19,003 nt of DNA, from assembly GCA_948514155.1 (NCBI GenBank), contig CAOQYA010000011.1, forward strand, positions 1 through 19,003, read 5' to 3'. Of this stretch, positions 1,424 through 14,778 are shown in pieces. Every line of letters begins with the position of its first letter. The stretch's first letter is position 1. The notes under the pieces were generated by a model. It saw only the letters and a list, made by a program, of their open reading frames with translations. It searched no databases and had not been told where the DNA came from. The position numbers and the translations under genes are program-made. The DNA is from an uncultured Eubacteriales bacterium (GTDB lineage Bacteria > Bacillota > Clostridia > Christensenellales > UBA1242).

Positions 1424-3046
1424 CTATCTCGAAAAAGGTTTTATTTTCGGCGCTTGAAGTTTTGCAAGAGCCTCGTCCGAAATTTCGATAACTCTGCCGC
1501 CTTTAGGATTTATCTTTCTTCCGCCAAACACCACCCAAATTGCACGGCAATTTTCCCTTGGCATAGAGGCCTTTCCGTCGGTGAAAATAATCTTATTCGC
1601 GGCGCGCGGAGAAAAATTATCAACAGCAGCGTTAAAATCGGTTCCTCCGTCTATATTAAATCTGATTTTTTCGATATCTGCCTCCGAGCGAACTTCTTGA
1701 AAATCGATAAATCGGGTGTTAAACTGCCCCACTTTGATGCGAGATACTTGCAAAATGTTTTTGCACTCTCTTAAAAAGTTCTTAAGCAGGTCTTCACTAA
1801 CAGAGCCAGACACATCTAGCATAATCTCTGTTTCAGGCTCGGCATATTTAATAAGCCTTGCATTAAGCACATTGTTTTCAAACTCGCCGTCGCGATATGA
1901 CCAATCAGCATTGATTTTCGCACTTTCGCGCAGCAGCCTTTTCCAATTGATAAGCGGCTTAGCCTTGCCAACATTGTCAAAATTTTTATATCGCGAACTT
2001 GTCCCTTTCCCGGCAAGTCCAGAACTTGATTTTTTATTGAGTTTTTCAATCATCTTTTCGAGATTTTCTTGAACTTGCTTGTCATTTTTCTCGAAAAGTT
2101 TATCTTCACCCTCACTAGCCTCTTCTTCAATCTTCTTTTGACGCTCTTCGTCCTTTTTCTTTTCCTCTTCGCTTTCTTCGCCTTGAAGTTCTTTTTCAAA
2201 GTCAGATTTAAGGCCTTTGCCTTCCTTGTAGTTTTTCACAACCTCTTCCCAAAGGTCGTGGCTATCGTGGCCTGCATTTCCGTCTTCGCTTTCTACATTA
2301 TCGCCGCCTTCCTCGTCACCCGAGCCACTTCGCGAGTCGCCACCTTGGCTTCCACCGTCAGAGTTTTCTCCGCCTTGCGAAGAATTTCCGCTTCCTTCGC
2401 CTTGGCCACTTTCAGCGCCGCTTTCTTGTGAGTCACTTTGCCCTTGGTCACTGCCGTCCGCTCCGTCTGAACTTGGACTATCTTTCTCCGAACTTTCACC
2501 CGAGCCACTCTGTCCTTGGCCTTGACCTTGGCCTTGCTCTTCTTGAGAACTCTCGCCACCTGAGGCTTGTCCCTGGCTTGAGCCTTGACCGCCTCCATTT
2601 TGTTGCTGCTGACCACTCTCGCCTTGCTCTTTTGCTTGTTGCTTCTCCTCGGCTTCTTTAACGAGTTTGTCGTAGATTGTCTCCGCCTTCTTGTTAAGCG
2701 CTTCAGGCATGTCAACACCACCCGCAGGAATTATTCCCCCATCTCTTCTCAACATTTGATTGATAACTGCATCGGTGGCGATGTTCCAAAGTTTTTTAAC
2801 TTTGCCGTCCGATCTTCTAATGTGGTCGCTGGCAATATGCAAAATCTCATGCGCAAGAACGAACTCCTGTCCAGCCTCATCAAGCGTTTCCATAAAATTA
2901 GGGTTAACAAAAATATTTTTCCCATCAGTGCAGGCCGTTGTCATTTTCTCCGTTTGAATAATGCGGCAGCCCGCCACAAGGCTTCCGAAGAAAGGATATT
3001 TCAGCAATGTTTTTCTCTTTATCTTTTCAACATCAAACATATGCAC
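1424..3046 (-). CDS. VWA-domain protein with an N-terminal putative zinc-metallopeptidase domain (DUF2201_N plus DUF2201/VWA-like architecture) and a long acidic low-complexity linker
   Basis: The 540-aa ORF has an HExxH motif (LAHEILHI, codons 66-70, nt 2837-2851). Its C-terminal VWA domain has a MIDAS-like DxSGS (IMLDVSGSVS, nt 1802-1816) plus downstream GGTD and FTDG. Residues about 131-335 are a G/S/Q/E/D/K-rich low-complexity stretch. The gene starts 5 nt after the preceding ORF. From recollection, this family is typically encoded next to MoxR-like AAA+ ATPases. Confidence 0.8.
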   Translation of the reverse strand: MHMFDVEKIKRKTLLKYPFFGSLVAGCRIIQTEKMTTACTDGKNIFVNPNFMETLDEAGQEFVLAHEILHIASDHIRRSDGKVKKLWNIATDAVINQMLRRDGGIIPAGGVDMPEALNKKAETIYDKLVKEAEEKQQAKEQGESGQQQQNGGGQGSSQGQASGGESSQEEQGQGQGQGQSGSGESSEKDSPSSDGADGSDQGQSDSQESGAESGQGEGSGNSSQGGENSDGGSQGGDSRSGSGDEEGGDNVESEDGNAGHDSHDLWEEVVKNYKEGKGLKSDFEKELQGEESEEEKKKDEERQKKIEEEASEGEDKLFEKNDKQVQENLEKMIEKLNKKSSSGLAGKGTSSRYKNFDNVGKAKPLINWKRLLRESAKINADWSYRDGEFENNVLNARLIKYAEPETEIMLDVSGSVSEDLLKNFLRECKNILQVSRIKVGQFNTRFIDFQEVRSEADIEKIRFNIDGGTDFNAAVDNFSPRAANKIIFTDGKASMPRENCRAIWVVFGGRKINPKGGRVIEISDEALAKLQAPKIKPFSR

Positions 3047-3051
3047 GCCTC

Positions 3052-3438
3052 TTAAATTATGCAGCCAACTTGCGCAATTTGCGGCGCAAGTTTATTAAAA
3101 TCGGAGCACAAAACAACTATGCTCACATTTGCGGGCAGTTTAAATGAGCCAATCGCCCTATTTTTTAAAATTTCTAAAAATTTAAGTTGCTCTTTTTCTG
3201 AAATCTTGGCAATATCTTCAACAACTAATATCGAGATAATTTCATCCTTATTCTTGCAAAGTTCTTGCAGCCAATCAGGCGCTTGCCACTTGCCAGAAAT
3301 ATATTGTTCGGACAGCGCTTTATCAATCTCGCAATCAGCGGCAATAAAAGTTGCGCCTTTAAAATCTTTTTTGGCCAGATTTGTGATAACAGGAGAAATG
3401 TTTGCAGCAATAGCCTCTAGTAATTCTTTGTTTTTCAT
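3052..3438 (-). CDS. Small protein that is a P-loop-less paralog of the AAA+ core of the upstream ATPase
   Basis: The 128-aa ORF starts with an ATG that overlaps the upstream stop (ATGA at 3438-3435), with AAGGGAGGA upstream. Its segment APDWLQELCKNKDEIISILVVEDIAKISEKEQLKFLEILKNRAIGSFKLPANVSIVVL aligns by eye to the ATPase segment PPAWYDELVEKCQNEPEKNHILFLDELTNALPSIQGEVLTLVQDRKVNGRFKLPSNCRIVAA. The position equivalent to the Walker A motif reads NLAKKDFKG, so there is no GKS/T. Confidence 0.6.
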   Translation of the reverse strand: MKNKELLEAIAANISPVITNLAKKDFKGATFIAADCEIDKALSEQYISGKWQAPDWLQELCKNKDEIISILVVEDIAKISEKEQLKFLEILKNRAIGSFKLPANVSIVVLCSDFNKLAPQIAQVGCII

Positions 3439-5339
3439 AACGAGATTCCTCCCTTAGTTGAAGTTTCACTAGCAGCAGCACTAAGTTCAGCAATCCTCAT
3501 CGCTCTATCTTTATCGCCATGTATCCAAAGACTGTCAAACACCGCCTCTTCTTCCTCTCCAAGTTTGGAAACGAAGTTTCTAACTGTCGCAAGTTTATCG
3601 TCACTCACATTAGTGAGGCAAGTTGCAGTCAGATATCTAAGGTCTGTCTGCATTTCATCAAGGTCCTCTTGAGTGTAGTTGCCACTCAAAACATCTTCAA
3701 GCGAGATAATTTCGCTCTGGCAGAAAGCAGCAAATTCATCAGCAATATCTCCCACATGCATCCTTGCAAGATATGGATTTCTTCCCGCTTTAAGTTCGTT
3801 GGAAACTTTCTCCCACGCTCTTGGTGTTGCGGAAGGGTTTTTTGGGTCTCCGGAGAATTCAGTTCTAAGAGCGCCATCTCCATTAAAAGCAATAAACGCA
3901 TACACTGCAGGATGTATCCCGGCCTTAGCCGCCCACGGCAGCCAGTTGTCTGTAGTTGTCTGAATATTCACATGTCCAAATCTATCGAAAAGCGGCCTTA
4001 TTATATCATAAGCGGCTTCACTATCTTCCATTTCGTTTCCGGCTGCGACAATTCGGCAGTTTGAAGGAAGTTTAAATCTGCCATTCACCTTTCGGTCCTG
4101 AACAAGCGTCAACACTTCGCCTTGTATGCTTGGAAGCGCATTTGTAAGTTCGTCAAGGAAAAGAATGTGATTTTTCTCTGGCTCATTTTGGCATTTTTCC
4201 ACAAGTTCGTCATACCAAGCTGGCGGAATATCTTCAACCTTGCTGGTTGCAGGATTAAAAATTGTTTTTCCGTTCAGTCTATCCAGCGAAAAACTTGCAA
4301 GAAGCAGTGTTATGCAATCCGGGTCAACCTGCTTCACTCTTGCCGATTTTCCGTCGCCGGGCAAGCCATGCAAAAACACCGGCTCGTCGGCCGCAATAGA
4401 TGCAATAATCATTTCCTTAGGAGTTATGTCGCTGTTAAAATTAAAGTTATATGGGTTGTTAGTTGTCTTTTTCGCTTTCTTTGCAGTCTGTTTTGCGGAG
4501 TTATCACTCTTTTGTTTTCCAGACTGATTTACTAAACTGTCCCACCTTACTTCTTTAGCAAAATAGTTATTAAGATATTTATGTGCAAAAGTCTTTTTAA
4601 AGTTGCCGTTATAACTATCGCTACTATCAAACTGAATTCCCGCAAAAAGCACTCTTTCAGAGAGAATAATCTTTTCGTCCTCGTCAACAAGCCAAGTTAT
4701 CGGCTCAACTTTAACCCAATAAGTTTTTCCTGTCTGGGCTTGTTCCTTGTTGGAAAGAACTCCGGGTGCAGAGTCCAAACATTCGACCCTTACAAATTTT
4801 TCACCTCTCCACTCATATTCTATAACTGTGCGAGGGTCAAAGGCCTTGCTATATTCGTCATAACTATGAGAGTCAAAAGTATATTCATGCCCCGTCTTTT
4901 TAAGAGTTCCGTCTGTAAATTGTTTATCAAGACTTTTCCTCTCTAATTCAGTGGCTAATGTTTGTGGGTATTGCCCAATTTTAACACGAAGAATTCCGTC
5001 TGCTCCCCTCACTCCGTTCGGGAGATCTTTGATTAAAGAGAACGACGAAGCGGGCCGGAAGCCATCATTGCGTCTGCTCGGTATACTCCACGTCTTAGGG
5101 CCGTCAGAGCCCACGACACGAACATCCGTATCAGCATTCTCAGAAGCGGACCACCACCAAGAGGCATGTGCTTGACCAGTGGATGTTTCAACAATCTGGC
5201 CTGAATTAACTGCTCCGCCGAGAACAACAGCAAGGTCTGTTGTGGCGGCTTTTGTGCCATATTTTTTAAATATTTTCAGTTGGTTGCTATCCCAAATTTG
5301 TTCTTGATTTAAAAGTGTAAATGCTTTAGTTTTTGCCAT
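3435..5339 (-). CDS. DGR variable (target) protein: an N-terminal diversified ligand-binding-like domain fused to a MoxR/AAA_5-like AAA+ ATPase
   Basis: The 634-aa ORF contains the VR at codons 58-98. Walker A is GLPGDGKS (nt 4344-4367), Walker B is HILFLDE (nt 4149-4166), sensor 1 is RIVAAGN and there is an FDRF motif. No N-terminal hydrophobic signal peptide or TM segment is visible (MAKTKAFTLLNQEQIWDS...). AGAGGAG lies 7 nt upstream of the ATG. Confidence 0.85.
   Translation of the reverse strand: MAKTKAFTLLNQEQIWDSNQLKIFKKYGTKAATTDLAVVLGGAVNSGQIVETSTGQAHASWWWSASENADTDVRVVGSDGPKTWSIPSRRNDGFRPASSFSLIKDLPNGVRGADGILRVKIGQYPQTLATELERKSLDKQFTDGTLKKTGHEYTFDSHSYDEYSKAFDPRTVIEYEWRGEKFVRVECLDSAPGVLSNKEQAQTGKTYWVKVEPITWLVDEDEKIILSERVLFAGIQFDSSDSYNGNFKKTFAHKYLNNYFAKEVRWDSLVNQSGKQKSDNSAKQTAKKAKKTTNNPYNFNFNSDITPKEMIIASIAADEPVFLHGLPGDGKSARVKQVDPDCITLLLASFSLDRLNGKTIFNPATSKVEDIPPAWYDELVEKCQNEPEKNHILFLDELTNALPSIQGEVLTLVQDRKVNGRFKLPSNCRIVAAGNEMEDSEAAYDIIRPLFDRFGHVNIQTTTDNWLPWAAKAGIHPAVYAFIAFNGDGALRTEFSGDPKNPSATPRAWEKVSNELKAGRNPYLARMHVGDIADEFAAFCQSEIISLEDVLSGNYTQEDLDEMQTDLRYLTATCLTNVSDDKLATVRNFVSKLGEEEEAVFDSLWIHGDKDRAMRIAELSAAASETSTKGGISL
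5046..5166 (-). repeat. DGR variable repeat (VR)
   Basis: This 121-nt segment is colinear with 6674-6794 at a constant offset of 1628 with no indels. There are 17 mismatches, and 16 fall where the coding-sense TR has A. It encodes ASWWWSASENADTDVRVVGSDGPKTWSIPSRRNDGFRPAS. The 3' end in coding sense is the GC-rich, invariant GGCTTCCGGCCCGCTTCG. Confidence 0.9.
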
Positions 5340-6673: not shown

Positions 6674-6794
6674 CGAAGCGGGCCGGAAGCCATTTTTGCG
6701 TTTGTTTGGTTTATTCCATTTCTTATTGCCGTCAGAGCCCACGACACGAACATTATTATTATCATTCTTAGAAGCGGACCACCACCAAGAGGCA
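6674..6794 (-). repeat. DGR template repeat (TR)
   Basis: This is the non-coding counterpart of the VR. Its coding-sense conceptual translation is ASWWWSASKNDNNNVRVVGSDGNKKWNKPNKRKNGFRPAS, rich in AAT/AAC/AAA/AAG codons. I count about 35 adenines by eye, and 16 of them differ in the VR. It lies between avd and the RT. Confidence 0.9.
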
Positions 6795-9696: not shown

Positions 9697-10792
9697 TTAT
9701 ATCTTTTGCAAATAACTGTTAATAAATTCTTGAATGTCGCCGTTCATGACCGACTGAATGTCGCTGGTCTCATAGCCGGTGCGGTGGTCTTTGACAAGGG
9801 TGTATGGGCAGAAAACATAACTGCGAATTTGGCTGCCCCATTCGATTTTTTTAATCTCTCCCTTAATCTCGGCCATGTGCTCCATTTCCTCACGCTCCTT
9901 CTTTTCGGCAAGGCGAGAAAGAAGCATTTTCATGGCAACTTCGCGATTTTGAATTTGCGAGCGCTGGGTCTGGCAAGAAACGACGATGCCAGTTGGGATG
10001 TGAGTTATTCGAATTGCCGACTCGGTCTTGTTGATGTGCTGGCCGCCGGCGCCGCTGGAGCGGAAGGTGTCGATTTTAAGTTCGTCGGACTTAACTTCAA
10101 TCTCGCCGCCCTCCTCAAGTTCGGGCATAACTTCCACGCTTGCAAAACTGGTGTGCCTGCGCGAGTTAGAGTCGAAAGGCGAAATTCTAACAAGTCTATG
10201 AATGCCTTTTTCGGCTTTAAGATAGCCATATGCATTTTCGCCGGAAATGATAAAGTTAATGTTTTTAATGCCCGCCTCGTCACCCTCGAGCACATCGAGA
10301 ACGGTCAGTTTAAAGCCGTTTTTCTCGGCATACATCGAATACATCCTAAACAGCATGTCCGCCCAGTCCTGCGCTTCGGTGCCGCCCGCGCCCGCATGGA
10401 TGTTCATAATCGCATTTGCGCCGTCATATTTTCCCGATAAAAGAGTGACAATTTTAAGGGCGTCCTGCTTTTTTTCAAAGCCAATTAAAGACTGTTTCAA
10501 CTCTTCAAAAAGTTCGTTATCTTCTTCCAGTTCGCAAAGTTCCAAAAGCGCCGAAATGTCGCTTGCATTGGCATCAAGGCCTGCCACTTCAGAGAGCAGT
10601 TTTTCCTTGCTTCTAAGTTTTTTTCCCACCTCGCTCACTCTGGCCGCGTCGAGATAGAAGTCGCTTTCAAGTTGCTGCGCTTTAAGGTCTTCAACTTCCT
10701 TTTCTAGTTTAGCGGTGTCAAAGACACTCCTTTAAGAAGTTAAAGTTTTCTTCAAGAGTTTTAAATTTCATTTTTTCGTTATCAATAACCAT
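9697..10792 (-). CDS. prfB: Peptide chain release factor 2, requiring a programmed +1 frameshift at 10720
   Basis: The ORF-track fragment 9697-10638 carries the SPF (ISPFDS) and GGQ (SGAGGQHINKTESAIRITH) motifs. My own translation of the upstream frame gives MVIDNEKMKFKTLEENFNFLKECL, then TGA. Shifting +1 at CTT TGA C continues as DTAKLEKEVEDLKAQQLESDFYLDAARVSEVGKK..., which joins the listed ORF. The total is about 364 aa. Confidence 0.9.
10717..10731 (-). promoter_or_regulatory. RF2 autoregulatory +1 frameshift site
   Basis: The minus strand reads AGGAG TGT CTT TGA C. That is an internal Shine-Dalgarno-like AGGAG 3 nt before the slippery CUU-UGA-C, the same architecture as E. coli AGGGGG TAT CTT TGA C. 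Confidence 0.85.
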
Positions 10793-10920: not shown

Positions 10921-13900
10921 CTACGCCACAGCCGTAAAACCATTCTCCTTCAAAAAGCCCACAATATTTATGTCTGTTTCAAGAAATTCCTCCTGCCACA
11001 AGAAACTTTTAATAAACGGCACGGACGAAATTTCAAGACCATCATATAGCCCCCAAATTTCATTGCTGAAAGCGCTTTCTTCCGTCTCGTCTTGACCGAG
11101 AATGTAGTTTTTAAATATTGTCGCATCTCCACTTTCACTTTTCTTTAGAGTAGCATCATAGTAGCAACTTGAAAACTCGGTGCTGCCGTTGTTGTTATAC
11201 ACGAACGGCAAAGCCCTGGCTGAAGAACTTATTATTTCGCCTTTGAAAGCGCAGTTCGACGCGGTGAGTTTATTGGTGTTAACTGCGCCGACCAAGCCCC
11301 CTATTCCATAGGCAGACGAGGACAGCGAGCCGCCTTTTAATTTGGCAATGGCATAGCAACTATCAATGTTTGTATTTTTGTTGGTGTAAGCAAGAATTCC
11401 GCCAACAGCAAGCGAAGAGGATGTGACGCTGCCATTATAGAACGCCCTTGTTATCTTTAATGGCTGGCTGGCATTAGATGTGAAACTTCCAAGAATTCCG
11501 CCCGCATATGACACATTGCTGCTTCCATTATTTGCCACAACATCGCATATAGACAAAACATCGGTGATTGTCAGGTTTGACCCGGCAGTTGTAATGGTGC
11601 TATCTCCAACAATTCCGCCTGCAGCGCTCTTGCCAGTAATATTTCCAATGTTCGAGCAGTTCTCGATGGTGCCCGCAAAAACTCCGCAAATTCCGCCTGC
11701 AAAGGTGCCTATAACATCAGCCGAGTTTTTGCAGCCCGATATTTTGGCCATTCCATAAGCCATAATTCCTCCCGAATAGCCGTTTGCATTGTTAATCTTG
11801 CCATAGTTTATGCAGTTATTAATAATTGTCTCACCGTTCGTGTTGAGAACTCCATAACCAGCAATTCCGCCTGCATATTTTTGACTGCCTGTAGCGTTTA
11901 ACTCCCCATAATTTAAGCAATTTGAAAAGGTACAGCCCGCTCCACCATAACCAATTCCTGCCAAATATTGCCCTGTTAAACTTCCAAAATTAATACAATT
12001 ATTAACAATTGTTCCACCAATGCCTTCTGCGCGATCTATGGCCGAGACTACACTCGCGTAGTTCACACTATTATCAACATATCTTCTACCAGTGCCATTC
12101 GTTGCCCCAATAATGCCTCCAGCACTAGTCTGAGCCTTAATCTGCCCGCTAACAAAGCAGTTATCGACATCAACAATTGAAGTTGGTGCTTTAAATGCCA
12201 AAAGTCCTCCAGCAGAGCCGCTTTTTGACACGATATCAGCATCAATAACGTGAACATTTGAAAAATAAGGAGAACCATTAACTATATAACCGGTCAGTCC
12301 TGCATAATCGTTAGCACGAACAGTCAAATTTTCAAAAGTCGTATCGTATATATACAAACTACTATTAACTTTGTTAATAAAGCCAGCACTGACAGTTGTT
12401 TCATAGCCCGCGTTTATATTGGAAATTGTATGTCCTTGACCATAAAGATTAATCGATTGAGGAAAAATCGTGTCTGTGCCTATGCCGTCCCACTTGTATG
12501 CCCCTAGGTCTATATCTGCTTCCAAATAAACATAGAATTGACTGGCAGCAGTGCATTCAGTAAGCCACGCAAGTTCTTCTGCTGTGTAAATGTGCCACGG
12601 GCTGGCCTGACTGCCGCTTCCCTCTCTAGGTTTAATTTTACGCTGGCTCCATAAATTATTCGAAGTCTTATCTGTAAGACCATAGTATTTCATGAAAGAA
12701 ACATTTAAAGGAAACACATATCGCCACTGCTGATTATCTACATCTTTCTCACTCCAAACTGTAAGGTCGAAACTGGTTGGAATAGATGTCGAATTTTTAT
12801 ATTCTACTTCTTGAACGCTATTTGCGACTATGTTATCTGACACGACCATACAAGACAGGTTTTTATCGGTAAAAAATTTAACTGTTCCAAAAGGCAAGCC
12901 ATTTCTCGTTATGCTAATATCAGCCCCAACGAGACAGTCATAAGCATAGTATGATGTCGACGAAAAACCTGCAACATAAACATTCGCTTGATTGCTTGTT
13001 GTTTGTATATTGATTTTTCCAGTGAAAACAAATTGTTTTAAATTTTCTCTTGTTAATGTTGGACCGCCATAAACATTCACATAATTAGTCGAATTTATTT
13101 TCACTTCAGCATCTAAAACAGAAAATCCACCATGTGAAGAATTTTTATTGCTCTGAAAAATTCCTTGTGTAAAACAATAAAGCGTAAAGGCATTTTTAGT
13201 AGTAACATCCACATCAAGTTTTTGAACGGAGACTTGATATAAATTTCCGTTGTAGTAGTTGCTGTTTCCTGCTGCAATTATTCCAACAGTTGCATTTTTT
13301 GCATTCTCACCTATAATTCTTGGGCTTTCGATGATTGTGTTGCTGACAGAAACGACAGCACTCGTTGCTGCTCTCACGAATAAGCCTGTGGTAAACCTGT
13401 AACTCAATGATTTTTCGTAATCAAGATTTATTGTCATGTTTCTAATAACATGATCTTTTCCTATTAAAATCACCTCTTTTTTTATCGGTGTCCAATATTT
13501 GTCAACTAAATCAATATCGCTTTCAAGTTCAATTTGCACTTTATTTGGGCCATTATTTATAAACCAAGCTAGTTCATTTGCATTTCTGACCCTATATGTA
13601 GGAGTTGCTGTTGCGGCAGTTTGATAAGGCTTCTTGCTGTAATCTTCCCAATATTCAACGCTAACAAAATTGGTGTTCAACGAATAATACTCTATTAGAC
13701 AATCATTATCAGGAATGATATATTTGAAAGAACTTGTTAAGTCTGCATCTGACCAAATATTTTTGTCGTAGCCTTCTGGAACAACTGTAATATTGTCTTC
13801 TGGCCTAACTGTATTCAGATTAGATGTCACCTTATTAAATCTAATTTTATTTGCCGGAGTTGTCGCCTCTAATTCATATGAAAAGTTTATGAAGCAATTT

Positions 13901-14778
13901 CTCGACGCCGCAGTAGTGTTAGCGGCATATTCTCCCACATAGCAATAATTTGTAAAACTAGAAGGCAAATCAATGTTTACTTTAACATTTTCAACAACAT
14001 CTGCATATCCAGCAGCAGAAGTTGCCTGCCCGCTTATTCCACCGACAAACACCCCTCCCTTTGCTTTTTGTGACGAAAGTCTAATGCTCACATTTATTGC
14101 AGAAATGCCCTTAGTTTCATATGAAGAGTAAGGAAAGCCTAAAACGGACCCAACATGAGTCTCCCCAGAAAAATTAATAACCTCAATCTGTGAATTTTGC
14201 ACAGAAATATTTTGATAATAGTCATTTGCATTTGAATTAGAAACACCTGAAACAACAAAACCTATGCCTGACGAAGAAGTATAGTTTTCTAAATTTGCTA
14301 AAATCAGTGAATTTACAATTTTAAAATTTTTTGCTTCAATCCTTGAAGAGACATTTCGAAAAAAACCTATATGTCCACCAGCTTGCGAGTTGATTGTTAA
14401 ACCTGATATGGTGTGATTATTCCCTTCAAAATTTTGACCTGCCCATATACTTTTCCACAAATGAGCCGACAAATCTATATCATTGCCAAGTTCTACATAT
14501 CCGGCGGAATGAGACTCAAACCATGCAAGTTCCTCACCTGATGTGATTATGTATGGGTTGGCGGCGGTGCCTGCTCCGGTGGCGGGCTGAGTGGCGTAGT
14601 CTGTCCAGTAGTCGGTTGGAAGGTTTGACGGGTCAATTTCTGTGGCTGCGTGAGAAGGCGTCAAGGAAGGCGCTGAGCTCTTATTTGACTGCGCAAAAAA
14701 GAAGACAAACAAAAAAATGGCAACGATGCTCGCCGCTAAACTGAGCGATATTGTGGAAAACTTTTGCCATTTTTTCAT
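10921..14778 (-). CDS. Large secreted or membrane-anchored surface protein with three tandem modules and GLUG-like (AGGIxG) beta-helix repeats
   Basis: The 1285-aa ORF has an N-terminal signal or anchor (MKKWQKFSTISLSLAASIVAIFLFVFFFA). Each of three modules opens with a W.DY..P....NPY/TY/PW.I...EELAW motif (aa 57, 375 and 709). Each ends with an IWS/G..D......P......Y/F motif. Residues about 855-1165 hold at least 9 repeats of NCxNxGxI/L...AGGIxG. No LPXTG motif was seen. Confidence 0.8.
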   Translation of the reverse strand: MKKWQKFSTISLSLAASIVAIFLFVFFFAQSNKSSAPSLTPSHAATEIDPSNLPTDYWTDYATQPATGAGTAANPYIITSGEELAWFESHSAGYVELGNDIDLSAHLWKSIWAGQNFEGNNHTISGLTINSQAGGHIGFFRNVSSRIEAKNFKIVNSLILANLENYTSSSGIGFVVSGVSNSNANDYYQNISVQNSQIEVINFSGETHVGSVLGFPYSSYETKGISAINVSIRLSSQKAKGGVFVGGISGQATSAAGYADVVENVKVNIDLPSSFTNYCYVGEYAANTTAASRNCFINFSYELEATTPANKIRFNKVTSNLNTVRPEDNITVVPEGYDKNIWSDADLTSSFKYIIPDNDCLIEYYSLNTNFVSVEYWEDYSKKPYQTAATATPTYRVRNANELAWFINNGPNKVQIELESDIDLVDKYWTPIKKEVILIGKDHVIRNMTINLDYEKSLSYRFTTGLFVRAATSAVVSVSNTIIESPRIIGENAKNATVGIIAAGNSNYYNGNLYQVSVQKLDVDVTTKNAFTLYCFTQGIFQSNKNSSHGGFSVLDAEVKINSTNYVNVYGGPTLTRENLKQFVFTGKINIQTTSNQANVYVAGFSSTSYYAYDCLVGADISITRNGLPFGTVKFFTDKNLSCMVVSDNIVANSVQEVEYKNSTSIPTSFDLTVWSEKDVDNQQWRYVFPLNVSFMKYYGLTDKTSNNLWSQRKIKPREGSGSQASPWHIYTAEELAWLTECTAASQFYVYLEADIDLGAYKWDGIGTDTIFPQSINLYGQGHTISNINAGYETTVSAGFINKVNSSLYIYDTTFENLTVRANDYAGLTGYIVNGSPYFSNVHVIDADIVSKSGSAGGLLAFKAPTSIVDVDNCFVSGQIKAQTSAGGIIGATNGTGRRYVDNSVNYASVVSAIDRAEGIGGTIVNNCINFGSLTGQYLAGIGYGGAGCTFSNCLNYGELNATGSQKYAGGIAGYGVLNTNGETIINNCINYGKINNANGYSGGIMAYGMAKISGCKNSADVIGTFAGGICGVFAGTIENCSNIGNITGKSAAGGIVGDSTITTAGSNLTITDVLSICDVVANNGSSNVSYAGGILGSFTSNASQPLKITRAFYNGSVTSSSLAVGGILAYTNKNTNIDSCYAIAKLKGGSLSSSAYGIGGLVGAVNTNKLTASNCAFKGEIISSSARALPFVYNNNGSTEFSSCYYDATLKKSESGDATIFKNYILGQDETEESAFSNEIWGLYDGLEISSVPFIKSFLWQEEFLETDINIVGFLKENGFTAVA

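Follow-up and report, generated by a model that had tools for sequence, protein, structure and literature searches.

How a diversity-generating retroelement (DGR) comes to vary the beginning of a predicted cytoplasmic ATPase, and what such a protein might recognise, are the questions raised by the 19,003-nt stretch of contig CAOQYA010000011.1 (assembly GCA_948514155.1) described here. This whole stretch is called the window, and positions refer to it unless another locus is named. Every long open reading frame (ORF) of the window is on the minus strand, and read 5' to 3' on that strand the order is an Avd-like ORF, a template repeat (TR), a reverse transcriptase (RT) gene, a 634-aa target ORF containing the variable repeat (VR), a 128-aa ORF and a 540-aa ORF (Table 1). 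The window holds a complete DGR, with Avd, TR, RT and VR, and the protein it diversifies probably serves inside the cell as a sensor, or selector of substrates, that can be reprogrammed.

Table 1. Coordinates of the DGR, its target and the partner genes in the window (AF2, AlphaFold2; CDS, coding sequence).
Feature	Position	Strand	Basis or remark
Avd-like DGR accessory protein, 168 aa	6839-7345	-	phrog_3206 'Avd protein of DGR', 8e-12
TR	6674-6794	-	121-nt direct repeat of VR; 35 adenines
DGR RT, 343 aa	5417-6448	-	RVT_1, 2e-21; phrog_1423 (phage DGR RTs), 3e-93
DGR target: N-terminal variable domain, linker and predicted MoxR-class AAA+ ATPase, 634 aa	3435-5339	-	ORF; AF2 model
N-terminal domain, ~265 aa (residues 5-267), DUF6273-derived by sequence comparison, VR near start	4539-5327	-	AF2, hhalign
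VR, codons 58-98 of the 634-aa ORF	5046-5166	-	121 nt, 86% identity to TR
Candidate cis-acting hairpin within the CDS, stem CTCCC/GGGAG	5003-5024	-	~22 nt 3' of VR; DNA conservation, covariation
Predicted MoxR-class AAA+ module, residues ~300-625	3465-4442	-	Foldseek, Pfam, PHROG
Walker A	4344-4367	-	GLPGDGKS
Walker B	4149-4166	-	ILFLDE
Degenerate AAA fragment, 128 aa	3052-3438	-	ATGA overlap with target; BLASTP to target, 6e-7
Zn-metallopeptidase DUF2201_N, linker and VWA (DUF2201), 540 aa	1424-3046	-	Pfam 4e-30 (DUF2201_N), 6e-11 (DUF2201)
HEILH	2837-2851	-	HExxH of the 540-aa protein
DVSGS	1802-1816	-	DxSGS metal ion-dependent adhesion site (MIDAS) of the 540-aa protein

The retroelement and its target

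Of the 121 positions, 17 are mismatched between the TR and VR, and 16 of these mismatches fall on TR adenines, the remaining one being a T>G change; by binomial arithmetic, the chance of such an adenine bias is about 3e-8. The VR translates as residues 58–98 of the target, HASWWWSASENADTDVRVVGSDGPKTWSIPSRRNDGFRPAS (HASWWWSAS...GFRPAS), and the TR, if translated, would read FASWWWSASKNDNNNVRVVGSDGNKKWNKPNKRKNGFRPAS. Both repeats end in the GC-rich sequence GGCTTCCGGCCCGCTTCG, a candidate for the IMH element that DGRs have at the 3' end of the VR. The RT carries the motifs LGNQTSQ and YMDD, as read in its translation. The Avd-like ORF stays under the curated cut-offs of Pfam bAvd (1e-4) and NCBIfam DivGenRetAVD (2e-4), and Avd homologs lie 5' of the RT in 23 related loci. 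The mutable stretch of the TR includes six Lys codons (AAA/AAG), in which adenine mutagenesis can make stop codons; with the VR at codons 58–98, a stop there would lose the whole ATPase, which is an unusual cost. The TRs of most DGRs are AAY-rich.

Compared over 6,366 nt with L093, a second assembly of the same species (GCA_949060665.1) that ends short of the TR, the window differs at 24 positions. Twenty of these are in the VR (19 at TR-adenine positions) and only four in the other module genes and the compared portion of the RT gene, a distribution that argues for an active DGR. A second assembly of this species is recorded as having an identical TR but a different VR. At the protein level, one member of the window protein's 90% cluster differs solely at residues 67–68, and for P0122 (the window protein's 90% cluster) there are 12 residue differences, 11 of them within 69–92. 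Variation is likewise confined to the VR in the lineages P0100/L092 and P0141/L091, which have an intact upstream RT, bringing to three the DGR-intact lineages with VR-confined amino acid variants. Where the RT is truncated (P0303/L089, a 208-aa remnant) or absent (P0116, P0005 and P0126), one identical sequence was found on 6–76 contigs or index blocks per lineage, and the few cluster variants are spread along the protein. Diversification therefore tracks an intact DGR, and these comparisons indicate that the element is currently active in nature, with mutagenic retrohoming ongoing. No part of the protein diverges more than the region equivalent to the VR, even when species without a DGR are compared with one another. 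The one non-adenine mismatch between TR and VR, the T>G at 5127 (minus strand), is flanked by two mutated adenines; L093 keeps the templated T at this position, which suggests a strain-specific non-adenine change that was brought in with the neighbouring ones.

An AF2 model of the target, built with 39 homologs, reached a mean predicted local distance difference test score (pLDDT) of 82.8. It consists of a folded N-terminal part (residues ~5–267, pLDDT ~90), a Lys-rich, disordered linker (residues 268–294, pLDDT <30) and a C-terminal module (residues 300–625) of alpha/beta plus helical structure. The closest PDB structures to this module (Foldseek) are those of NorQ (9qh4, 9qhd) and CbbQ (6l1q, 5c3c), with E-values of 3e-8 to 3e-6 and TMt values of 0.6–0.66. 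All of the top 18 matches are NorQ or CbbQ (TMt 0.56–0.66), followed by McrB, RavA, RFC and dynein-type AAA proteins. Among Pfam profiles, AAA_5 passes its cut-off (24.5 bits against 22) and bpMoxR remains 2 bits short (25 against 27), and phrog_1297 ('ATPase') matches residues 308–593 at 9e-44. In addition to the Walker motifs, the protein carries RIVAAGN (sensor 1). GKS, DE, N435, R453 and R507 are invariant in the 39 homologs (Walker A, G..G.GKS; Walker B, hhhhDE), and among full-length relatives in species-representative genomes each Walker motif is present in 84 of 85. Neither a signal peptide nor a transmembrane (TM) segment is seen in the target (maximum Kyte-Doolittle 19-mer, 1.08), and no hydrophobic stretch of either type occurs in any of the three module proteins (maxima 1.08–1.25). 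The target is predicted to be a cytoplasmic fusion protein, with a MoxR-class AAA+ ATPase whose catalytic motifs are intact.

The two ORFs that follow the target gene make up the rest of the module. The 128-aa protein aligns to target residues 373–431 (Walker-B strand to sensor 1) with 34% identity (BLASTP, E 6e-7), and the verified ATGA overlap indicates that it is translationally coupled to the target. This small AAA fragment, 100–163 aa in length, is found in almost all related loci, and none of 78 orthologs has a Walker A motif. The centre of the 540-aa protein is a ~200-residue acidic low-complexity stretch rich in Ser, Gly, Glu and Gln. Its relatives keep HExxH in 65 of 68 cases and DxSGS in 66 of 68, and phrog_1314 matches it over the full length (2e-62). 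The label of that family, 'HNH endonuclease', is probably an annotation error, as Pfam and the HExxH and MIDAS motifs indicate DUF2201_N/DUF2201; no functional study of DUF2201_N/DUF2201 proteins or their phage relatives was found in the literature searched. Between the stop codon of the 128-aa ORF and the GTG of the third gene there are 5 nt, and an ATG 11 nt past the stop, behind AAGAGG, is the likelier start. A reading of the locus made earlier from its sequence only (the sequence-only reading) had described a DGR aimed at the N-terminal domain of a cytoplasmic, 634-aa protein with neither signal peptide nor TM segment and with the VR at codons 58–98, a MoxR/AAA_5-like ATPase as its C-terminal part, a degenerate AAA paralog coupled to it by ATGA, and an HExxH plus VWA protein downstream, all of which agrees with the results above; its five-nucleotide gap to the third gene holds for the GTG but not for the likelier ATG.

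The variable domain and a nearby hairpin

Modelled alone (AF2), the N-terminal domain forms one compact unit (pLDDT 92, predicted template modelling (TM) score 0.91). Foldseek returned no structural relative from the PDB (best E 0.07, TM score ~0.1) or BFVD (best E 0.06, TM score ~0.1), and no chain of Mtd, TvpA, formylglycine-generating enzyme (FGE) or any other protein in these databases matched the model, although a very divergent C-type lectin (CLec) fold may escape Foldseek. A profile search of PDB sequences also gave no match. A CLec fold is unsupported by these searches, and on the tests used the domain does not appear to be a recognisable CLec, FGE or Mtd fold.

A relationship to DUF6273 (PF19789) is seen at the sequence level. 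DUF6273 has been reported as a CLec-like scaffold of gut-phage DGR targets, of the 'Ig1 class' (10.1101/2024.10.15.618418; PMC10743442). Pfam DUF6273 does not match the window protein, and its homologs score a marginal 20–27 bits (cut-off 23.5) over profile positions ~77–169 only, covering the last ~45–90 positions. Genuine DUF6273 proteins were gathered with a consensus-like probe, and all those retrieved carry PF19789. Using hhalign, residues ~28–100 of the N-terminal domain align to the C-terminal, VR-bearing half of DUF6273 with a probability of 95.3% (E 2e-8, 63 columns), the homologous segment having the pattern ...T.[YF]A...G....WWW..S....V..DG......[VA]RPA. On this alignment, we take the VR half to be homologous to that of DUF6273.

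The arrangement of the two halves is different. In canonical DUF6273 the order of conserved elements is FG.YEQ - IEW.VL..LLIS...L - TLR.WLN..F - ...VFLLS..E - R.C.PT.YA...G - WWWLRSPG - V..DG - VRPALW, whereas the window family places the VR half first (FTFLTEEQ - GTKAA.TDFA.LLGG - WWW..S - V..DG - ARPA), followed by GILEVEYGEYPQ, an insertion of ~75 residues, and YWVEVEPI.WLVDE..I.LS..LF - DIK.FMD.YF; the collinear DUF6273 order does not occur in this family. When permuted in silico and freed of the insertion, the domain is collinear over 147 DUF6273 columns (95.5%, E 1.4e-8), with no gain in score over the VR half alone (hhalign). The non-VR half by itself reaches the correct N-terminal half of DUF6273, although weakly (E 1e-3, probability 22%). 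In the multi-copy protein P0158, the DUF6273 match bridges the junction of two tandem copies, and in a Pfam scan of hand-permuted single sequences the DUF6273 match was not lengthened. Judged on these alignments, the N-terminal domain is likely a circular permutation of DUF6273. Tandem arrays of canonical and window-type domains exist, which would offer the classical duplication-and-truncation route to a permutant. Most of the canonical DUF6273 proteins retrieved begin with lipoprotein-type signal peptides, which are missing from the window family. Apparently the scaffold was transferred from the cell exterior, or from a virion, to the cytoplasm. The earlier proposal of a CLec/FGE- or DUF6273-like scaffold in permuted arrangement stands, in part: the VR half is DUF6273-like but no CLec, FGE or Mtd structure matches, and the permutant is collinear with DUF6273 but the other half matches it only faintly.

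The N-terminal position of the VR also has a consequence for retrohoming. A C-terminal position lets the cis-acting elements of retrohoming lie in intergenic DNA, and this has been given as the reason why VRs are found there (Roux et al., PMC8144416), but it is not possible within the target gene when the VR is N-terminal; the present locus, with an N-terminal VR and a hairpin that apparently lies inside the CDS, breaks this generalisation. The hairpin DNA, ATCTCC(C/T)CGAACNGAGTGAG(G/A)GG, is conserved across loci whose proteins are ~40% identical, encodes a conserved S-(S/P)-N-x-V-R-G and could fold into a stem of 5 bp. Changes in the first base of its Pro/Ser codon are accompanied by changes in the third, synonymous base of its Arg codon (CCCC...GGGG and CCTC...GAGG). 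Over 35 distinct related sequences, 88.6% of cells are paired and there is one covarying pair (CG in 17, UA in 10); its covariation score was reached by none of 500 shuffles, and every slid control scored lower. By analogy with the hairpins of other DGRs, it is a candidate target-recognition element in retrohoming, with a short stem and a covariation drawn from related sequences. It is seen at the same site in L002–L070, and is also retained in loci with neither RT nor TR within 10 kb and no VR-focused population variation, either as a relic or because the nucleotide conservation has some other cause. A DGR acting in trans on the DGR-less copies, an idea suggested by the retained hairpin, found no support, as those lineages have no VR-focused variation.

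Distribution and genomic setting

Target homologs number 2,453 in a 90%-clustered protein collection, hundreds of them ~620–650 aa long and ~42% identical, and the module was found in 361 confirmed stretches of GTDB species-representative genomes. These are almost all gut metagenome-assembled genomes (MAGs) labelled Bacilli/Tenericutes, including Clostridium sp. CAG:417, Coprobacillus sp. CAG:605 and Candidatus Faecisoma. With a profile of the N-terminal domain, 2,873 clusters (50% identity) were collected; in nearly all of them the domain is N-terminal, and occasionally it is duplicated or joined to ankyrin (P0158) or pentapeptide repeats (P0168) in place of the ATPase. Six proteins of ~900 aa (P0006, P0008, P0009, P0012, P0037 and P0038) have two such domains, which either stand in tandem before the ATPase or flank it on both sides. 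A further target-like gene follows the VWA gene in some loci, as at 12556–15276 of L085.

Almost all of 76 loci sampled from species-representative genomes have the genes in the order target, small protein, peptidase-VWA, which points to the three-gene module as the functional unit. About 27 of the 76 have an RT ortholog (51–57% identity) directly upstream of the target gene, and 20 of these show an adenine-biased TR/VR pair at the same gene site (for example 12 of 12, 14 of 14 or 16 of 17 mismatches). Several other loci have RT fragments only and no TR. The same DGR thus occupies the same site in about a quarter to a third of the sampled loci, and because RTs only 51–57% identical are found with TR/VR pairs at one site, the association must be old; the DGR is best described, on this comparison, as an ancient and often lost attachment to the module. 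The search of genomes for the module with and without a DGR, which the sequence-only reading had called for, shows that both forms exist. One example of the latter is a species with a 58%-identical target, in which the module lies between the U32 peptidase gene and hrcA as in the window, without the DGR.

In the window, the module is flanked by housekeeping genes, namely hrcA, grpE and dnaK at one end and those for a U32 peptidase, tsaD and prfB at the opposite end. Across species the flanks are unrelated: 186 Pfam families occur among 150 neighbours and none more than four times. The neighbours are mostly housekeeping genes, with a few encoding helix-turn-helix (HTH) proteins, transposases, methylases, RhuM, HipA, Mob_Pre, recombinases or PemK, and neither a recurrent fourth partner nor phage structural genes were found among the 150. 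A reading of the locus as a prophage, or of the target as a virion protein, was rejected given the housekeeping flanks, the lack of phage structural genes among these neighbours and the absence of the N-terminal domain from the phage records searched. Some cassettes have neighbours of another kind, such as a Mob_Pre relaxase and HTH genes (L092, 273–4818), a serine recombinase and a PemK fragment (L089, 10304–11893), or IS605 OrfB and RhuM (L002, 8032–9775). Neighbours from mobile elements hint that the cassette may move on small mobile elements.

Two further ORFs in the window deserve mention. The first (10921–14778, minus strand; 1285 aa) has a GC content of 0.34–0.36, against 0.42–0.48 around it, and specifies a protein with a hydrophobic anchor at its N-terminus, a 'W..Y....P......ELAWF' unit that is repeated three times, and numerous AGGI.G-type repeats. 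Neither Pfam nor PADLOC gave a match to this ORF, and it is missing from L083, an otherwise syntenic locus of a related species; it looks like a separate insertion that encodes a large surface protein. The second (9697–10638, minus strand) is a release-factor ORF (PCRF and RF-1 domains) whose start corresponds to position 25 of the PCRF profile, which would fit prfB with a +1 programmed frameshift. Such a frameshift is classical for prfB.

Possible function and known relatives

We regard the architecture itself (an active DGR, a DUF6273-derived domain, a MoxR ATPase and a three-gene unit) as very probably correct. What it does is a more tentative matter, and a DGR-programmable device for intracellular recognition and proteolysis is proposed with somewhat less than even confidence. 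The N-terminal domains of AAA+ motors are the usual site of substrate or adaptor recognition. In the proposed device, the ATPase ring would display up to six hypervariable domains as ligand receptors and the VWA partner would bind to the ring in the way that NorD binds to NorQ. Hydrolysis of ATP would then remodel the long acidic linker between the peptidase and VWA domains, so that the peptidase would be positioned, or unlocked, on the ligand caught by the variable domain. In the NorQ-NorD system, the NorQ pore engages a finger of the NorD VWA domain and ATP hydrolysis remodels the NorD linker (PMC13036017).

The likeliest ligands would be proteins of phages or of other mobile elements such as plasmids. 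Several traits of the family resemble those of conflict systems, namely paralog expansion, tandem-domain variants, and the presence, absence and decay of the DGR. Related systems that combine a DGR with MoxR-vWA proteins have been read as invader sensors (PMC7159879, PMC10907252), and it is the hypervariation, the gain, loss and paralogy, and this published reading that together point to foreign proteins. The fullest version, which we consider possible but doubtful, is an anticipatory, antibody-like intracellular receptor with its own protease, a self-contained ~6-kb cassette of gut Bacilli in which the DGR would keep randomising a permuted, cytoplasmic DUF6273 binder at the N-terminus of a MoxR ATPase, and this motor would deliver or unlock a VWA-tethered zinc peptidase upon capture of a foreign protein.

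A number of observations weigh against a recognition and proteolysis device. The N-terminal domain matched no ligand-binding fold in the structure and profile searches, and the closest relatives of the ATPase and peptidase-VWA proteins are in phages, where they have been proposed as assembly chaperones and not as immunity proteins. PADLOC-DB 2.0 has no family that matches the target, the small protein or the VWA-peptidase, and the RT is matched only by its generic RT/DRT models. The neighbours are mostly housekeeping genes and not defence islands. Most family members are DGR-less and static, so a fixed-specificity housekeeping role is possible. The complex, the proteolysis and the ligand are themselves predictions.

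The sequence-only reading had proposed that recognition of an intracellular ligand gates the activation of the peptidase by the ATPase. In its form as a trigger of abortive infection, ligand binding would only gate the ATPase and the peptidase would be freed to act on host proteins, leading to dormancy or death while the ligand is left unprocessed. VMAP ternary MoxR-vWA systems and STAND sensors diversified by DGRs have been proposed to follow the same logic (PMC7159879, PMC10907252), and it would suit both the conserved catalytic motifs and the long low-complexity linker, which could hold the peptidase inactive. Scans with Pfam and PADLOC, however, found no effector-associated adaptor, VMAP, TIR, caspase or trypsin domain, and toxin-like features are absent. 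A death trigger randomised by a DGR would also carry a high cost of autoimmunity, and no antitoxin-like control is visible. Sequence data alone do not distinguish this trigger from the favoured device, and we consider it rather unlikely.

A remodelling chaperone outside immunity, which matures or repairs a cellular complex as NorQD, CbbQO or RavA-ViaA do, or processes structural or replication proteins like its phage relatives, would have a client tuned by the variable domain and the DGR as an add-on. Every characterised MoxR-VWA pair acts in maturation or remodelling (PMC13036017, PMC9976466), and the phage pairs of MoxR and peptidase-vWA proteins have been proposed as assembly chaperones (PMC7824862). 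About two thirds of the family is DGR-less and invariant in populations, and in two species the module sits among the hrcA-grpE-dnaK chaperone genes. A housekeeping client is nevertheless ill-suited to massive targeted hypervariation, but the module has long been associated with the DGR, which is active in several lineages; the genomic site varies by species with no recurrent client gene nearby, and the VR-equivalent region is most divergent even between species that lack the DGR. This alternative is therefore viewed as unlikely.

Still less probable, indeed very unlikely in our view, is a selfish function, in which a cassette belonging to a small mobile element of phage ancestry would use its variable domain to bind and neutralise changing factors of hosts or competitors (counter-defence or inter-element competition). 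The best family matches of the ATPase and the peptidase-VWA protein are in phage families, the insertion site differs between species, and some copies adjoin a Mob_Pre relaxase, a serine recombinase, PemK, or IS605 or DDE transposases. Set against this, a search of 50,697 phage records gave no match to the N-terminal domain even at E<=1, the window shows neither an integrase nor an att-like repeat nor phage structural genes, and the shared U32 peptidase-hrcA synteny in two species with 58%-identical targets suggests vertical inheritance. A surface or extracellular binder exported by an unrecognised route is extremely improbable: most cellular DGR targets are membrane-anchored binders (PMC8144416) and canonical DUF6273 proteins mostly have lipoprotein-like signal peptides, but signal peptides and hydrophobic segments are missing from all three proteins, and fusion to an ATP-dependent AAA+ module with intact motifs makes an extracellular site implausible.

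With four or five genes in ~6 kb, the cassette offers a tractable way to test for the ligand of an intracellular DGR receptor and for the use of a recognition domain by a MoxR-VWA system, and it gives context to the unstudied DUF2201_N/DUF2201 families and their phage relatives. If the proposed device is real, a hypermutable binder joined to an ATP-driven protease would be of interest for bacterial immunity, targeted degradation and continuous-evolution tools.

The closest relatives by sequence of the ATPase and the peptidase-VWA protein are phage pairs. The ATPase part (residues ~303–616 only) matches 584 phage records, including those of N4-like Schitoviridae, PA5oct-like jumbo phages and Bacillus phage G. 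These pairs have been described as a MoxR-vWA chaperone and co-chaperone with an N-terminal metallopeptidase, with a proposed role in virion assembly (Iyer et al. 2021, PMC7824862). They resemble the window in having homologous proteins (9e-44 and 2e-62) in the same order, separated by a small ORF; XC38, an N4-like phage, has a MoxR-like ATPase gene followed by a 135-aa ORF and a gene for a 403-aa protein that is homologous to the window peptidase-VWA protein (BLASTP, E 1e-19; HEIMH, DTSGS). The small ORF of XC38 has no detectable similarity to the window small protein and was rejected as its homolog. Unlike the window target, the phage ATPases (phrog_1297, paired with phrog_1314) are ~340 aa and have neither the N-terminal variable domain nor a DGR. 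NorQ-NorD and CbbQ-CbbO provide the best structural matches of the AAA+ module and likewise have an adjacent VWA partner with a MIDAS, but they serve fixed clients (cNOR and Rubisco) and lack a peptidase, an N-terminal recognition domain and hypervariation.

DUF6273-type proteins that DGRs target in gut phages and Firmicutes ('Ig1-class' VRs, tentaclins) have a VR segment homologous to that of the window. Canonical DUF6273 domains carry the VR at their C-terminal end and belong to secreted proteins, lipoproteins or virion proteins, whereas in the window the VR half comes first, the protein is predicted to be cytoplasmic, and the FG.Y.Q and I.W.V...LS...WLN..F-like elements follow the VR half with the ~75-residue insertion between them. 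Of the few VRs known from N-terminal or internal positions, most are in 'Ig1/Ig2' targets taken as phage tail fibres.

DGR-diversified cytoplasmic sensors in MoxR-vWA systems and STAND NTPases have been published (Kaur 2020, PMC7159879; Dore 2024, PMC10907252). The VMAP ternary MoxR-vWA systems of cyanobacteria and gammaproteobacteria share with the window a DGR-varied binding domain, MoxR, VWA and peptidase components and a cytoplasmic setting. Their VR is in a C-terminal CLec/FGS domain, usually on the vWA protein, and MoxR is separate; in the window the VR is N-terminal and on MoxR itself. Pfam and PADLOC scans found no VMAP, EAD, TIR, trypsin or caspase domain in the window, which consequently falls outside the VMAP systems: it has no VMAP, no adaptor domain and no trypsin, caspase or TIR effector, and its peptidase is a DUF2201_N zincin on the VWA protein. 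DGR-diversified STAND NTPases (NACHT/nSTAND1 with C-terminal CLec; PMC10907252) similarly combine an NTPase switch with a hypervariable sensor, but the window has an AAA+ MoxR ATPase, the opposite domain order and an effector supplied in trans by the VWA protein. AAA-fused DGR targets have been reported in CPR (candidate phyla radiation) bacteria (Paul 2017, as cited in PMC10907252), some of them with Midasin-like AAA matches (UVR4; Wu et al. 2018, PMC5758913). As described in these sources, the CPR targets resemble the window in carrying an AAA-type NTPase on the target polypeptide and in their reduced genomes, and differ in having a C-terminal VR and another RT clade and phylum, with no peptidase-VWA protein or small AAA fragment reported there.

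The earlier suggestion that no DGR had been described on a MoxR ATPase with a VWA-peptidase partner is partly upheld, as this architecture was not found published but the concept is known from the MoxR-vWA and STAND sensors and the AAA-fused CPR targets. No paper joining a DGR with DUF2201, RF39 or the window architecture was found in the literature searched, although unannotated catalogue entries are possible. The features that appear new against this literature are a VR at the N-terminus of MoxR itself, a phage-type DUF2201_N-peptidase/VWA protein with a small AAA fragment, the lack of VMAP or adaptor domains, and unicellular gut Bacilli as hosts. The hosts of VMAP systems are multicellular, and those of the window type are unicellular gut Bacilli (some MAGs being labelled Tenericutes). 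NTPase conflict systems diversified by DGRs have been regarded as typical of multicellular bacteria (PMC7159879, PMC10907252). The 361 stretches, almost all from gut Bacilli, break this generalisation, and if the proposed function is true, they would represent a naturally programmable machine for targeted proteolysis in unicellular, and not multicellular, bacteria.

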